From Escherichia coli O127:H6 str. E2348/69 (GTDB lineage: Bacteria > Pseudomonadota > Gammaproteobacteria > Enterobacterales > Enterobacteriaceae): a stretch of 64,000 nucleotides of DNA. Position numbers: made by a program. Shown piece by piece: positions 40,901 through 46,900 of the stretch (the first letter of the stretch is position 1; every line of letters starts with the position of its first letter). The DNA is taken from NCBI RefSeq assembly GCF_000026545.1, contig NC_011601.1; one strand, 5' to 3'.

Positions 40901-43900
40901 TCCAGCACATATCTACACCGATAACAACGGTGAGTTAATGACGCTGATGCAACGGGAAATGGCAGACGACAACCGTCATCTGCGCAGTATGGAAGCCTTT
41001 ATCAACCACGTACAAGGTAAGCCCGTGATGATAGTCGACGCCGAGCAGGGGTACATCATCCAGCAACTGGTGGCGGCGTTGTATCAATCCGCAGAAACAG
41101 GGATGCGTGTGGAATTATGACCAGGCCAGTAACGTTAACGGAACCCCATTTCAGCCAGCATACCCTGAACAAGTATGCTTCGCTGATGGCGCAGGGGAAC
41201 GGCTATCTTGGGCTTCGCGCCAGCCATGAAGAAGATTACACGCGCCAGACGCGCGGCATGTATCTGGCAGGGCTTTATCATCGGGCGGGGAAAAATGACA
41301 TCAACGAACTGGTGAACCTGCCTGACGTCATAGGGATGGAGATTACCTTGAATGGTGAACTTCTTGCGCTATCCCGCGAAACGTGGCAGCGCGAGCTTGA
41401 CTTCGCCAGTGGAGAATTACGTCGCAATGTCGTCTGGTCTTCAGCCAGCGGCGCACGTTATGCCATTGCCAGCCGTCGCTTTGTTTCGGCAGAACAACTG
41501 CCGCTGATGGCGCTGGAAATCAGCATTACGCCGCTGGACGCTGACGCGTCAGTGCTGATTTCAACAGGCATTGACGCCACGCAAACCAACCACGGACGAC
41601 AACATCTCGACGAAATCCAGATGCGGGTGTTTGGTCAGCATCTGATGCAGGGGATCTACACCACCCAGGATGGGCGCAGTGATGTGGCCATCAGCTGTTG
41701 CTGTAAGGTGAGCGGTGATGTGCAGCAATGCTATACCGCCAAAGAGCGCCGTTTACTGCAACATACCTGCGCGCAGCTTCACGCAGGTGAGACGTTGACG
41801 CTGCAAAAACTGGTGTGGATCGACTGGCGGGACGACAGACAAGCCGCTTTAGACGAATGGGGCAGTGCGTCGCTTCGTCAGCTTGAAATGTGCGCGCAGC
41901 AGAGTTACGACCAACTTCTTGCAGCATCAACAGAAAACTGGCGTCAATGGTGGCAGAAACGTCGTATCACGGTAAACGGCGGCGATGCGCACGATCAGCA
42001 AGCGTTAGATTATGCGCTTTATCACCTGCGCATCATGACGCCTGCCCACGATGAGCGCAGCAGCATTGCGGCGAAAGGTTTAACCGGCGAAGGCTACAAA
42101 GGCCACGTTTTCTGGGATACAGAAGTATTTTTGCTACCGTTCCATCTGTTTAGCGAACCGACGATTGCCAGAAGTTTACTGCGTTATCGCTGGCACAACT
42201 TGCCTGGCGCGCAGGAGAAAGCGCGACGCAACGGCTGGCAGGGCGCTCTGTTTCCGTGGGAAAGCGCGCGTAGCGGCGAAGAAGAGACGCCGGAATTTGC
42301 TGCCATTAACATTCGTACCGGGTTGCGGCAAAAAGTGGCCTCTGCGCAGGCGGAACATCATCTGGTGGCCGATATCGCCTGGGCGGTTATTCAATACTGG
42401 CGGACCATGGGGGATGAAAGTTTCATTGCTCATGAAGGCATGGCGCTACTTCTGGAGACGGCAAAGTTCTGGATTAGCCGCGCGGTGAGGGTTAACGACC
42501 GTCTGGAAATTCATGATGTTATTGGGCCAGACGAATATACCGAACATGTCAATAATAACGCCTTCACCAGCTATATGGCGTATTACAACGTCCAGCAGGC
42601 GCTGAATATCGCTCGTCAGTTTGGCTGTAGCGACGACGCGTTTATTCATCGTGCAGAAATGTACCTCAAAGAACTGCGGCTGCCAGAAATTCAGCCCGAC
42701 GGCGTTTTGCCGCAGGATGATTCGTTTATGGCTAAGCCGGTGATTAATCTGGCGAAATACAAAGCGGCGGCGGGGAAGCAAACCATTCTGCTGGATTATT
42801 CACGCGCAGAAGTGAACGAGATGCAGATCCTCAAACAAGCTGATGTGGTGATGCTCAATTACATGCTGCCGGAGCAGTTCTCAGCGGCATCGTGTCTTGC
42901 CAATCTGCAATTTTATGAACCGCGCACTATTCACGACTCGTCATTAAGTAAAGCAATCCACGGCATTGTTGCCGCACGCTGTGGCCTGCTGACCCAAAGT
43001 TATCAGTTCTGGCGCGAGGGGACTGAAATCGATCTTGGTGCTGATCCACATAGCTGTGATGACGGTATCCACGCTGCCGCAACTGGCGCTATCTGGCTGG
43101 GGGCGATTCAGGGTTTTGCCGGGGTGAGCGTGCGTGACGGTGAATTACATCTCAATCCGGCGTTACCTGAGCAGTGGCAACAGTTGTCTTTCCCTCTGTT
43201 CTGGCTGTCTCTTATACACAAATCCCCACCCGGGGATTTGTGATGTCTGTCAGTCTGCTTTAGGGGGACTCTTTCCATCCGGTAGTTTCCTTCCTCCCCG
43301 GCAGCGATTTTTTGAACTTTTTCCTCACCTGTTGATCTTCTCTTATATTTCATTTTCTTCGGGTCTGTTATGGTACTTTCTGATTGTTATTCATGGGCTA
43401 ACGAGCAGTTTGGACATGCCCGTCTCGGTGATCCGCGTCGTACACGACGCCTTGTGTCACTGGCCTCTTCTCTCGCTCAGCATGCAGGTCTTTCTATTGT
43501 GAAATCATCCCAGTCCACTGCTCAGGTTGAAGGTGCGTACCGCCTGATACGTAACCCGTCTGTGTCCCCGCAAGCCATTGCCGAAGCCGGATTTACCGCC
43601 ACTGTAAGGGCATGTGAGGCTCATCCGCTGCTCCTCGCGCTGGAAGACACCACCACCATTAACTTCAGTCACAGTACGGCATCTGATGACCTGGGGAATA
43701 CCACCACTAACCCGAAGACGCGCGGGCTGCTGGCTCACTCTGTCCTGATGTACGCCCCCGACAGCGCCCTGCCAGTCGGTCTTATCGAACAGCAGCGCTG
43801 GAGTCGTGCCACGGACACCTACGGTGTTAAGCACCAGCGAAAAGAACGTCCCTATGAAGAAAAAGAAAGTTACCGCTGGCAGCAGGCTTCGGAGCGCATG

Positions 43901-46900
43901 GCCGAACGGCTGGGGGAGATACAGAAACGGGTAATCACTGTCTGTGACCGGGAAGCGGATATCTGGCATTACCTGCATTATAAAGTCAGCCACGGGCAGC
44001 GCTTCGTGGTGCGTGCAGCACAGAATCGCCGGCTGGAAGAAGCACCCGGCAAGCTCTTCGAACTGCCGGAAGTCCTGGCAACCGCGGGAAGCCACACGCT
44101 GAATGTGATGCAAAAAGGCGGGCGGGCAGCCCGCCAGGCCCGGATGTTCATCAGTTACAGCGAAGTCAGCATAAAAAATCCCGACAACAGCGGCCAGGCG
44201 CTCCCGCTCACGTATGTCTGTTGCCGGGAGCAGGCAGAGGACGGCGCCTGCTGGCATCTGCTGACGTCAGAAAAAGTGGCGAGTGCCGCCGATGCGCGAC
44301 GTATCGTCAGCCATTACGAGCGACGCTGGCTGATAGAGGAATACCACAAGGCGTGGAAAAGTGGTGGTACATGTGTGGAATCGCTGCGAATGCAGACCCG
44401 GGATAACCTCGAGCGCATGGTGGTTATCAAGGCGTTTATCGCGGTGCGGGTGCTGGGCCTGCGGCAGGGCGGTATCAGTGAAGAAACACAAAATGACAGC
44501 TGTGAGAAAATACTGACGCCGACAGAGTGGAAACTGCTGTGGGTTAAGCTGGAAGGAAAACCGCTTCCGTCACAGATGCCGACACTGAAATGGGCCTGTC
44601 TGAAACTGGCGAAACTGGGGCGATGGCATGACAGCAAACGCACCGGTCGCCCCGGTTGGGTAGTCATGTGGGATGGCTGGTTCAGACTTCAGGATATGGT
44701 TGAGGGTTACCTGGTGATGAAGTCTCTTGATCAGGAGATCTGATCAAGAGACAGCTGTTCTGGCAGGGCTGCGAATTACAGGTCACTCTCGACGCGCAGC
44801 GTATTGCGATTCGAACTTCTGCGCCCGTTTCACTGCGCTTGAACGGTCAGCTTATTTACGTCGCTGAAGAATCTGTTTTCTGTTTGGGGGATTTTATTTT
44901 GCCCTTCAATGGGACCGCTACCACACATCAGGAGGGTGAATGAAACTGCAAGGGGTAATTTTCGATCTGGATGGTGTAATCACCGATACCGCGCATCTGC
45001 ATTTCAAGGCGTGGCAGCAGATTGCCGCTGAAATTGGCATCAGCATTGATGCGCAGTTTAACGAATCCCTAAAAGGGATCAGCCGCGATGAGTCTCTGCG
45101 GCGCATTCTGCAGCACGGGGGCAAAGAGGGCGACTTTAACCCGCAGGAGAGGGCGCAACTGGCGTATCGCAAAAATCTGCTTTACGTCCACTCACTGCGC
45201 GAACTGACGGTTAATGCTGTGCTGCCCGGCATTCGCAATTTGCTGGCTGATCTCCGTGCACAGCAGATCCCTGTAGGGCTGGCTTCTGTCTCCCTGAATG
45301 CGCCGACGATTTTAGCAGCGCTGGAGCTGCGCGAGTTTTTCACCTTCTGCGCGGACGCTTCCCAACTTAAAAACTCGAAACCGGACCCGGAAATCTTTCT
45401 CGCCGCCTGTGCCGGACTGGGCGTGCCGCCGCAGGCATGTATCGGCATTGAAGATGCGCAGGCGGGCATTGACGCCATTAACGCCAGCGGTATGCGCTCG
45501 GTGGGGATCGGCGCGGGCTTAACCGGGGCGCAATTACTGTTGCCCTCAACGGACTCCCTGACCTGGCCGCGGTTATCGGCCTTCTGGCAAAACGTATAGC
45601 AAAGGAATCAACATGGCTCAGCTTTCGTTACAACATATTCAAAAAATCTACGATAACCAGGTGCATGTGGTGAAGGACTTCAACCTGGAAATTGCCGATA
45701 AAGAGTTCATTGTCTTTGTCGGTCCGTCAGGCTGCGGTAAATCGACCACCCTGCGCATGATTGCCGGGCTTGAGGAGATCAGCGGCGGCGATCTGTTGAT
45801 CGACGGCAAACGAATGAATGACGTTCCAGCCAAAGCGCGCAATATTGCGATGGTGTTCCAGAACTACGCGCTGTATCCGCATATGACGGTCTACGACAAC
45901 ATGGCGTTTGGCCTGAAGATGCAAAAAATCGCCAAAGAGGTGATTGATGAGCGGGTGAACTGGGCGGCGCAAATTCTCGGCCTGCGAGAGTACCTGAAAC
46001 GCAAGCCGGGCGCGCTTTCTGGCGGGCAACGCCAGCGTGTGGCGCTCGGGCGGGCGATTGTGCGCGAAGCGGGCGTGTTTTTAATGGATGAACCGCTCTC
46101 TAACCTTGATGCCAAGCTGCGCGTGCAAATGCGCGCAGAGATCAGCAAGCTGCATCAGAAACTGAACACCACCATGATCTACGTGACCCACGATCAGACC
46201 GAAGCGATGACCATGGCGACGCGGATTGTGATTATGAAGGATGGGATTGTTCAGCAAGTAGGTGCGCCGAAAACGGTTTATAACCAACCTGCGAATATGT
46301 TTGTTGCCGGATTTATTGGATCGCCTGCGATGAATTTTATTCGCGGCACGATCGATGGCGATAAATTCGTTACGGAAACGCTTAAATTAACCATACCCGA
46401 AGAGAAATTAGCGATTCTGAAAATACAGGAAAGTTTGTATAAGCCCATCGTGATGGGAATACGCCCGGAAGATATTCATCCGGACGCGCAAGAAGAAAAT
46501 AACATTTCCGCCAAAATTAGCGTGGCAGAATTAACCGGTGCTGAATTTATGCTCTACACCACGGTTGGGGGGCACGAACTGGTGGTCCGTGCTGGTGCGT
46601 TAAATGATTATCATGCAGGAGAAAATATCACTATTCATTTTGATATGACTAAATGTCATTTCTTTGATGCAGAAACGGAAATAGCAATTCGCTAAATACA
46701 GGGGGAAGGCATTCCCCCAGGATAATACAAGGAACAATAATGAAAAATTTATTACCCTGTACCGCACTGGTGATGTGTGCGGGAATGGCCTGCGCACAGG
46801 CCGAGGAAAAGAACGACTGGCACTTTAATATCGGCGCGATGTACGAAATAGAAAACGTCGAGGGTTATGGCGAAGATATGGATGGGCTCGCGGAGCCTTC

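Follow-up and report, generated by a model that had tools for sequence, protein, structure and literature searches.

The stretch of Escherichia coli O127:H6 str. E2348/69 analysed here (64,000 nucleotides of contig NC_011601.1, hereafter the window) carries the ycj sugar cluster, in which the gene assigned to ycjT is interrupted by a copy of ISEc13. The genes ycjMNOPQRSTUV-ompG have been described as a YcjW-repressed unit (PMC6599011); this, together with the conserved synteny from ycjM to ompG, bears out the original prediction that the insertion lies inside the ycjM-ompG operon. The features of the region, in coordinates of the window, are the following.

33385-33413, + strand: putative ycjM operon promoter, TTGACA / 17-nt spacer / TAGTCT (hexamer scan, 9/12 matches)
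33423-33436, + strand: YcjW operator O1, TGGGACCGCTACCA, 12 nt before the ycjM ATG (33449); exact 14-mer, corresponding to the ChIP-seq/EMSA site of PMC6599011
41117-43204, + strand: ycjT 5' part, 696 native codons; RefSeq pseudogene "missing C-terminus"
43196-43204, no strand: target-site duplication, left copy CTGTTCTGG, exact 9-bp repeat
43205-44754, + strand: ISEc13 (IS4 family, IS50/Tn5-like), 1550 bp
43205-43223, + strand: left terminal inverted repeat CTGTCTCTTATACACAAAT, 17/19 identical to the IS50 outside end
43205-43243, + strand: IS-encoded fusion tail of truncated YcjT (LSLIHKSPPGDL) and stop codon TGA, from translation
43217-43242, + strand: hairpin with an 11-bp stem in the IS left end, dG -18.6 kcal/mol, z -4.15; the fusion stop codon is at its 3' foot
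43370-44743, + strand: ISEc13 transposase, 457 aa, intact, annotated WP_000244358.1
44736-44754, - strand: right terminal inverted repeat CTGTCTCTTGATCAGATCT (read inward), 19/19 identical to the IS50 inside end
44755-44763, no strand: target-site duplication, right copy CTGTTCTGG, exact 9-bp repeat
44764-44943, + strand: ycjT 3' remnant, 59 native codons (44764-44940) and stop (44941-44943); RefSeq pseudogene fragment "missing N-terminus"
44910-44923, + strand: YcjW operator O2, TGGGACCGCTACCA, within the ycjT tail; exact copy of O1, corresponding to the published second ChIP peak (PMC6599011)
44940-45599, + strand: ycjU/pgmB, beta-phosphoglucomutase, intact, with its own strong AGGAGG ribosome-binding site (44930-44935)
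45613-46695, + strand: ycjV, ABC-transporter ATPase, intact, 360 aa (a pseudogene in K-12)
46740-47645, + strand: ompG, monomeric porin, intact
47696-48694, - strand: ycjW, LacI-family repressor of the cluster (PMC6599011), intact

The coding sequence of ycjT is broken after codon 696 of 755. The head forms an ORF at 41117-43243, whose product ends in "...SFPLFW|LSLIHKSPPGDL*", that is, 12 IS-encoded codons followed by a stop at 43241-43243; its native part includes the GH65 N-terminal domain and linker, the complete (alpha/alpha)6 catalytic barrel and strands one to three of the C-terminal beta domain. The 3' remnant encodes five beta strands and a disordered tail, is devoid of its own start codon, and its TGA overlaps the ATG of ycjU at 44940 (ATGA). 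The break at codon 696 of 755, the end of the frame after 12 IS codons and the 59-codon tail running into the native overlap with ycjU had all been claimed originally, and every coordinate and count was reproduced. The further statement that the 59 codons resume in frame holds for the native codon phase only: since the IS plus one repeat measure 1559 bp (3n+2), head and tail do not share a frame in the actual DNA. No usable start was found in the tail frame except an internal TTG, which would give 33 codons, and translation of the frames shows that the tail is untranslatable as such.

With the IS and one repeat copy removed, ycjT becomes open over 755 codons; its product aligns without gaps to K-12 YcjT, with 95% identity over 755/755 residues, and is matched by each of the three Pfam GH65 profiles. 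The head by itself still has complete N-terminal and catalytic domains, and its C-terminal domain covers profile positions 3-27 of 62 only. Identification of the interrupted gene as ycjT, predicted to encode a GH65 kojibiose phosphorylase, is supported by this identity to K-12 b1316 (755 aa) and by the gene order ycjM-N-O-P-Q-R-S-T-U-V-ompG-ycjW. The frame is broken with respect to intact orthologues while both fragments are still recognisable, as in a pseudogene generated by an IS, and both halves are already flagged as pseudogene fragments in RefSeq.

The inserted element is 100% identical over its 1550 bp to copies of E2348/69 annotated as "IS4-like element ISEc13 family transposase"; it shows no difference from these copies, and only its location in ycjT is specific. 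Its inverted repeats are imperfect, the first 9 bases (CTGTCTCTT) being common to both ends, and the right one contains Dam GATC sites. The transposase gene is co-directional with the ycj operon and points toward ycjU. Its product matches Pfam Tnp_DNA_bind, DDE_Tnp_1 and Dimer_Tnp_Tn5, the last one with 24.1 bits, just below the gathering cut-off of 26.7, and is related to the Tn5 transposase structures with E = 6e-84, the DDE/YREK motifs being aligned (DTT, CDREAD, EE..HKAWK). The event is of an ordinary kind, and already recorded in the public genome annotation (RefSeq): ISEc13, which is a cut-and-paste element of the Tn5/IS50 type and has a DDE transposase, inserted into ycjT through a 9-bp staggered target cut, generating the CTGTTCTGG duplication. 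The comparison with IS-free relatives that had been proposed as a check agrees with this, a single CTGTTCTGG being found in the IS-free relative at exactly the insertion point.

Among 5426 complete E. coli genomes, the ycjT::ISEc13 junction is found in three, all E2348/69 variants deposited separately and all deriving from one isolate; the site is uninterrupted in 4959 genomes, and the ycjT/ycjU junction region is absent from 444. Since the 1550 bp are identical to the other ISEc13 copies and the same junction recurs in the three E2348/69 assemblies, the insertion is not due to chance. Multi-copy elements such as ISEc13 can confuse short-read assemblies; however, three complete assemblies, each deposited separately, share the identical junction and its intact 9-bp duplication, and a perfect target duplication marks true transposition, so that an assembly or laboratory-stock artefact can be given next to no probability. 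Each E2348/69 chromosome has about 27-30 places matching ISEc13, the best of them 100% identical, and a second identical copy is found in the window 19 kb away; this number of places, together with the intact transposase ORF, suggests recent activity of the element.

The interpretation that we hold with high confidence is that ycjT underwent a recent, lineage-specific and probably neutral pseudogenisation by ISEc13 in the E2348/69 lineage, most likely with loss of kojibiose phosphorolysis. Kojibiose phosphorylase activity is established for K-12 YcjT (Mukherjee et al. 2018, according to its citation in PMC6599011). The AlphaFold model (pLDDT 95.1, pTM 0.94) places the strands of the C-terminal beta domain at residues 670-673, 676-679, 687-696, 699-706, 709-714, 718-722, 725-729 and 732-736, followed by a disordered segment at 741-755. 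The four-region GH65 architecture is shared with K-12 YcjT and with CsKP from Caldicellulosiruptor (PDB 3WIQ/3WIR), in which the C-terminal beta domain comprises residues 692-756 and is common to all solved GH65 structures (PMC11442529). W696 aligns with W720 of CsKP (3WIQ), and the truncated head is without the equivalent of CsKP residues 721-756. The loss of five of the eight strands of this domain is therefore likely to inactivate the enzyme, as judged from the model, and the truncated protein would most probably be misfolded or unstable, because the missing strands belong to a domain conserved throughout GH65. In an alignment of 87 sequences (the query and 86 homologues at 28-59% identity), columns 697-732 are occupied in 82-98% of the sequences; conservation within 697-736 is weak, the best columns being G698 (76%) and L701 (57%). 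That YcjT(1-696) with its 12 additional residues is still an active kojibiose phosphorylase, the metabolic effect of the insertion being small, is improbable. The break does spare the N-terminal domain, the linker and the complete barrel, all invariant columns of the alignment, the last being H652, lie upstream of it, and the last 15 residues are disordered in the model; however, a half beta sandwich that ends in 12 foreign residues would hardly fold, the missing strands belong to a domain kept by most of the aligned sequences, and RefSeq calls ycjT a pseudogene.

Transcripts starting from the ycjM promoter would meet a premature stop and then up to ~1.7 kb that is either untranslated or translated only for the transposase. 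Neither a + strand intrinsic terminator nor a sigma-70 consensus promoter was found in 42900-45100, the IS right end included for the promoter search; hence the sequence gives evidence neither of strong polarity nor of an outward promoter. The hairpin at 43217-43242 is not an intrinsic terminator, since it is not followed by a U-run, and the terminator scan makes no call there. The C/G ratio exceeds 1 between ~43150 and 43350, and in four of five 78-nt windows over 43150-43427, which as a sign of Rho-dependent termination is only suggestive. Rho-dependent polarity on the distal genes ycjU, ycjV and ompG is plausible, and it would probably be incomplete, because an intrinsic terminator is missing and transposase transcripts can leave the right end. 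The likely polarity claimed originally is only partly upheld: the premature stop and the long stretch behind it speak for it, but no + strand intrinsic terminator was found and both O2 and the ribosome-binding site are retained. For the kojibiose pathway, polarity on ycjU would be largely moot, since beta-glucose 1-phosphate, the substrate of YcjU, is the product of YcjT (PMC6599011); loss of YcjT would starve YcjU, no other route presumably supplying this compound.

O2 follows the IS after 155 bp and precedes the ycjU ATG by 16 nt; O1 and O2, both present also in K-12, are the only two zero-mismatch matches to the 14-mer in the window. At ycjM, the YcjW site is located downstream of the predicted transcription start, and the second ChIP-seq peak, reported "between ycjT and ycjU", is the second strongest YcjW site in K-12 (PMC6599011). 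Because O2 and the AGGAGG site are both downstream of the IS, the distal genes keep native control elements, and any transcription leaving the element must pass O2; therefore these genes should stay under YcjW control. The claim that they must now depend on read-through or on an IS-borne promoter is overstated, since no outward promoter was found and O2 had been missed; an internal YcjW-controlled promoter is a third possibility.

Such a promoter, located in the ycjT 3' end downstream of the IS, would make the insertion silent for ycjU-ycjV-ompG, so that only ycjT is lost; we consider this an appreciable possibility, although clearly not the favoured one. Besides the identity of O2 with O1 and the strength of its ChIP-seq signal, it is favoured by an O2-like palindrome retained at the same place in the cluster of a relative whose YcjT shows only 59-60% identity, by a -10-like TATTTT located 9 nt upstream of O2 with the same spacing as between TAGTCT and O1, and by the complementation of a ycjU::Tn5 mutant by a ycjU clone with ~390 bp of upstream ycjT sequence (PMC2824699). 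On the other hand, an acceptable -35 element is absent and the consensus scan is negative; the conserved coding sequence DF(I/F)(L/I)P also accounts for the T-rich stretch, and O2 could act as a transcriptional roadblock instead. The complementing clone was in pBR322, where vector transcription could drive ycjU, and, since the cloned fragment starts ~200 bp upstream of the IS site, it places no promoter downstream of the insertion. Somewhat more doubtful is the extension of this view, in which O2, within the codons of the disordered tail, marks an internal promoter responsive to YcjW and kojibiose, or a roadblock, and ycjU-ycjV-ompG form a semi-autonomous sub-operon. If so, ISEc13 would represent a natural "split" of the cluster, with the phosphorylase lost and regulated distal expression intact; moreover, the kojibiose-consuming enzyme being gone, the inducer might persist and raise the induction of the distal genes.

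Very improbable is an adaptive insertion, in which outward transcription from ISEc13 switches on the normally silent ycjU-ycjV-ompG, leading for instance to expression of the OmpG porin. The transposase gene faces ycjU, no + strand terminator was found between its stop (44743) and ycjU, and Tn5-type elements reportedly allow weak distal expression; but the IS right end has no consensus promoter, O2 lies between the IS and ycjU with the ycjW repressor intact, the abundance of matching ISEc13 places, the best identical, fits a neutral burst, and the insertion occurs in no other lineage among the 5426 genomes.

The insertion in ycjT can be compared with known cases. Classical Tn5/IS50 insertions in operons are polar, with weak residual distal expression. 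The ycjT insertion resembles them in the transposase family and end sequences, in its position inside a polycistronic sugar operon, and in the premature stop, behind which a long stretch is left untranslated by the operon ribosomes. Unlike composite Tn5, it is a single IS, and apart from the termini its DNA has diverged strongly from IS50. A further difference from Tn5/IS50 mutations is that the terminus facing the distal genes is the inside-end-like one, toward which the transposase gene reads outward. The K-12 cluster offers another parallel, since its ycjV is a pseudogene (b1318/b4524) and one gene of the ycjM-ompG cluster has thus decayed independently in each lineage: in K-12 it is the transporter ATPase that is lost, its gene being annotated as a pair of adjacent pseudogene fragments (ycjV and ymjB), whereas in E2348/69 ycjV is intact and the phosphorylase is lost to an IS. 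Such independent decay points to the cluster being under weak selection in some lineages. The ycj cluster would be dispensable for many E. coli, in line with the 444 genomes that have no ycjT/ycjU junction region; K-12, moreover, fails to grow when kojibiose is the sole carbon source (PMC6599011).

The event, one among some thirty insertions of ISEc13 in this prototype EPEC strain, matters little in itself. E2348/69 is predicted to be unable to phosphorolyse kojibiose-type alpha-1,2-glucosides, which is of use mainly for metabolic modelling of this strain and for studies of the ycj cluster or OmpG in it. Of some wider value are the two identical YcjW operators in the cluster, the second hidden in the ycjT tail directly upstream of ycjU; a natural IS between O1 and O2 may be a ready-made tool for asking whether the distal genes have a promoter of their own.

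In E. coli O127:H6 strain E2348/69, ycjT is an ordinary IS-generated pseudogene, already known from the genome annotation. Its head, the part 5' of the insertion, starts with the ATG at 41117 and extends for 696 codons up to 43204; it then enters the insertion sequence and continues for 12 further codons (LSLIHKSPPGDL) before the TGA at 43241-43243. This split and its fusion tail, as described in the original prediction, were reproduced exactly by ORF listing and direct reading. The 1550-bp IS starts at 43205 with CTGTCTCTTATACACAAAT, closes at 44754 with CTGTCTCTTGATCAGATCT in reverse complement and carries on either flank the 9-bp duplication CTGTTCTGG (43196-43204 and 44755-44763); the insertion junction reads TTCCCTCTGTTCTGGCTGTCTCTTATACAC, as opposed to the empty site, the same target without the IS. 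The ycjT tail has 59 codons from 44764, and the overlap of its stop (TGA 44941-44943) with the ATG of the next gene (44940) was likewise confirmed. Without the IS and one repeat copy, ycjT is an open gene of 755 codons. The tail had also been said to resume in frame: this is true of the native codon phase, which is all that head and tail share, but not of the actual DNA, since the inserted 1559 bp are not a multiple of three. In the tail frame there is no start codon of its own except an internal TTG (33 codons).

Restored YcjT aligns without gaps to K-12 YcjT (b1316, kojibiose phosphorylase) at 95% identity, and every testable character of a GH65 kojibiose phosphorylase orthologue was found; the K-12 gene order is also kept (ycjM-N-O-P-Q-R-S-T-U(pgmB)-V-ompG, with ycjW divergent). 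In RefSeq both halves carry pseudogene labels ('missing C-terminus' for the first fragment, 'missing N-terminus' for the second) and are separated by an 'IS4-like element ISEc13 family transposase'; thus the insertion is real, not a chance finding, and already on record. A 2150-bp query over both junctions matched at 100% in three complete assemblies of E2348/69 and its variants, and no junction-spanning match was present in any other of 5426 complete E. coli genomes. When the empty site was reconstructed as a 600-bp sequence, 4959 of these genomes had it uninterrupted and 444 lacked it, and the proposed comparison with an IS-free relative, run on MS1657, revealed a single copy of CTGTTCTGG at the exact insertion point. 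In the literature searched, which did not extend to the strain's genome paper, there is no mention of ycjT in E2348/69, and in the publications found for ISEc13 the element is merely listed in resistance surveys.

The IS in ycjT is 100% identical to copies annotated as ISEc13, and its single ORF (43370-44743, 457 aa) contains Tn5-type DNA-binding, DDE and dimerisation domains; over its full length it aligns with structures of the Tn5 transposase (E = 6e-84), and the catalytic motifs are present. Compared with IS50 of Tn5, for which the IS50R copy from plasmid pMAK2 was the reference, the right end (44736-44754) is identical to the inside end at 19/19 positions, Dam GATC sites included, and the left end (43205-43223) matches the outside end at 17/19, while the interior is almost unalignable as DNA. 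The left end also matches the engineered hyperactive 'mosaic end' at 17/19 positions. A 9-bp duplication is the usual product of the Tn5/IS50-type transposase family; identity, Tn5-type DDE transposase, IS50-type ends and duplication all place the element as ISEc13 in the IS4-IS50 group. Tn5 also produces Inh, an N-terminally truncated inhibitor protein starting at Met56; the first 120 residues of the ISEc13 transposase (43370-43730) contain no internal methionine, so that a similar inhibitor is not obviously encoded. A second copy, 100% identical and inverted, lies 19.3 kb upstream (22315-23864, minus strand), in the intergenic region on which an MFS efflux gene and sapF converge with their 3' ends; around it is a palindrome, CACCTCATCCTGA...TCAGGATGAGGTG, resembling a bidirectional terminator, and it is flanked by a direct repeat of only 8 bp (ATCCTGAG), not 9. 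Recombination between the two inverted copies was rejected for the ycjT copy in view of its intact 9-bp duplication.

As for the protein, the head retains complete GH65 N-terminal and catalytic domains, but of the 62 profile positions of the C-terminal domain it keeps just 3-27. In the alignment, W696 corresponds to W720 of the Caldicellulosiruptor kojibiose phosphorylase (3WIQ), whose C-terminal beta-sheet domain comprises residues 692-756 plus 295-299 (PMC11442529, GH65 review). In the AlphaFold prediction of restored YcjT (pLDDT 95.1, pTM 0.94), this domain has eight strands (670-673, 676-679, 687-696, 699-706, 709-714, 718-722, 725-729 and 732-736), of which the insertion leaves three and takes away five, while residues 741-755 are disordered (pLDDT <50). 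In the alignment with 86 homologues from a full HMMER search (28-59% identity), columns 697-732 are filled in 82-98% of the sequences, with modest sequence conservation, and the median homologue has 47 residues past the break. All the invariant family columns are upstream of residue 696, H652 being the last, and on this ground the truncated protein could possibly keep residual activity; a catalytic barrel with three-eighths of a beta sandwich and 12 foreign residues is most likely an unstable product.

Concerning the operon, ycjMNOPQRSTUV-ompG is predicted to be a single unit repressed by YcjW: deletion of ycjW strongly derepresses ycjM, ycjT, ycjU and ompG, and the two strongest YcjW ChIP-seq peaks were located one upstream of ycjM, the other 'between ycjT and ycjU' (PMC6599011). 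A search for a CG-centred palindrome gave the 14-bp sequence TGGGACCGCTACCA, with exactly two exact matches in the 64-kb window, both identical in K-12 and both taken to be YcjW operators:

33423-33436: O1, putative YcjW operator TGGGACCGCTACCA, 12 nt ahead of the ycjM ATG
44910-44923: O2, putative YcjW operator TGGGACCGCTACCA, 16 nt ahead of the ycjU ATG

O2 lies within the last ycjT codons, 155 bp downstream of the IS, and is therefore still joined to ycjU; the original interpretation, which missed this second operator, was incomplete. Since these codons encode the tail that is disordered in the AlphaFold model, the DNA site may have shaped the protein sequence there. A syntenic cluster in a relative (L007, a sequencing-run assembly; YcjT 59-60% identical) has an identical O1 and a CG-centred O2 variant, CGGGAGCGGTACCA, 13 nt ahead of the ycjU ATG; in this cluster ompG does not adjoin ycjV.

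1260-1316 (L007): O1 behind a TTGACA-N17-TAGGCT promoter
11226-11239 (L007): O2-like palindrome before ycjU

A genuine internal promoter adjoining O2 is possible, given a -10-like TATTTT 9 nt upstream of O2, with the same spacing as at the ycjM promoter; however, it has no -35 element, and conserved coding accounts just as well for the T-rich element's retention in the distant relative, so it does not count as independent promoter evidence. A ycjU clone that gave complementation also contained about 390 bp of ycjT from upstream of the gene (PMC2824699), but it is not decisive here, since the vector could drive expression and the cloned segment begins ahead of the IS site. It is rather unlikely that ycjU, ycjV and ompG make up a semi-autonomous unit under YcjW control, which this natural insertion would cleanly part from the rest.

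The original prediction coupled the split with likely polarity on the distal genes; the split and fusion tail stand, while the polarity claim is unproven and somewhat overstated, because no terminator was found and both O2 and the AGGAGG ribosome-binding site of ycjU are kept. Between 42900 and 45100 the scans returned no sigma-70 consensus promoter and no plus-strand intrinsic terminator; six terminator-like matches all fall in the transposase gene and on the minus strand. With the hexamer criteria relaxed, the best candidate in the IS right end or the ycjT tail matched at 7/12 positions, not a convincing promoter, and folding of the tail RNA (44800-44945) showed no stability beyond that of shuffled sequence (z +0.93). 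A strong hairpin just inside the IS left end (43217-43242, 11-bp stem, dG -18.6 kcal/mol, z -4.15) was rejected as an intrinsic terminator for want of a U-tract; by analogy with the role described for such hairpins in IS50 and IS10, it may curb translation of, or read-through by, external transcripts entering the transposase gene. From the fusion stop to the transposase start, the C/G-ratio profile has C-over-G-rich stretches, compatible with Rho loading but only suggestive of it. The transposase gene is oriented toward ycjU, with nothing seen to halt its transcripts, and with AGGAGG retained, ycjU should be little affected by the lost translational coupling at the ATGA overlap. For transcripts that start at the ycjM promoter, polarity would be plausible, though probably partial, and weak transcription out of the IS could also occur; both would still have to pass YcjW bound at O2. 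Overall, the sequence gives no strong pointer for or against polarity.

Of the two products of kojibiose phosphorylase, glucose and beta-glucose 1-phosphate, the latter is what the beta-phosphoglucomutase YcjU acts on (PMC6599011). Presumably no other route supplies this substrate, and polarity on ycjU is largely moot for the kojibiose pathway. The cluster appears dispensable: the ycjT/ycjU junction region is missing from about 8% of complete genomes, and kojibiose as sole carbon source does not support growth of K-12 (PMC6599011). Moreover, ycjV (45613-46695, ABC-transporter ATPase, 360 aa) is intact in E2348/69, as are ycjW and all cluster genes other than ycjT, whereas the K-12 MG1655 annotation gives it as a pseudogene in two pieces, ycjV and ymjB; two lineages have thus seen independent decay of the cluster. 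This dispensability, together with the ISEc13 matches (about 27-30 places on each E2348/69 chromosome, two more on the plasmid, the best 100% identical), speaks for an insertion made recently, during an IS burst, and probably neutral. No Rfam family falls within 40000-48000, and elsewhere in the window RefSeq annotates two further features:

9622-10080, minus strand: IS200C transposase gene
12267-13393, minus strand: frameshifted yciW pseudogene
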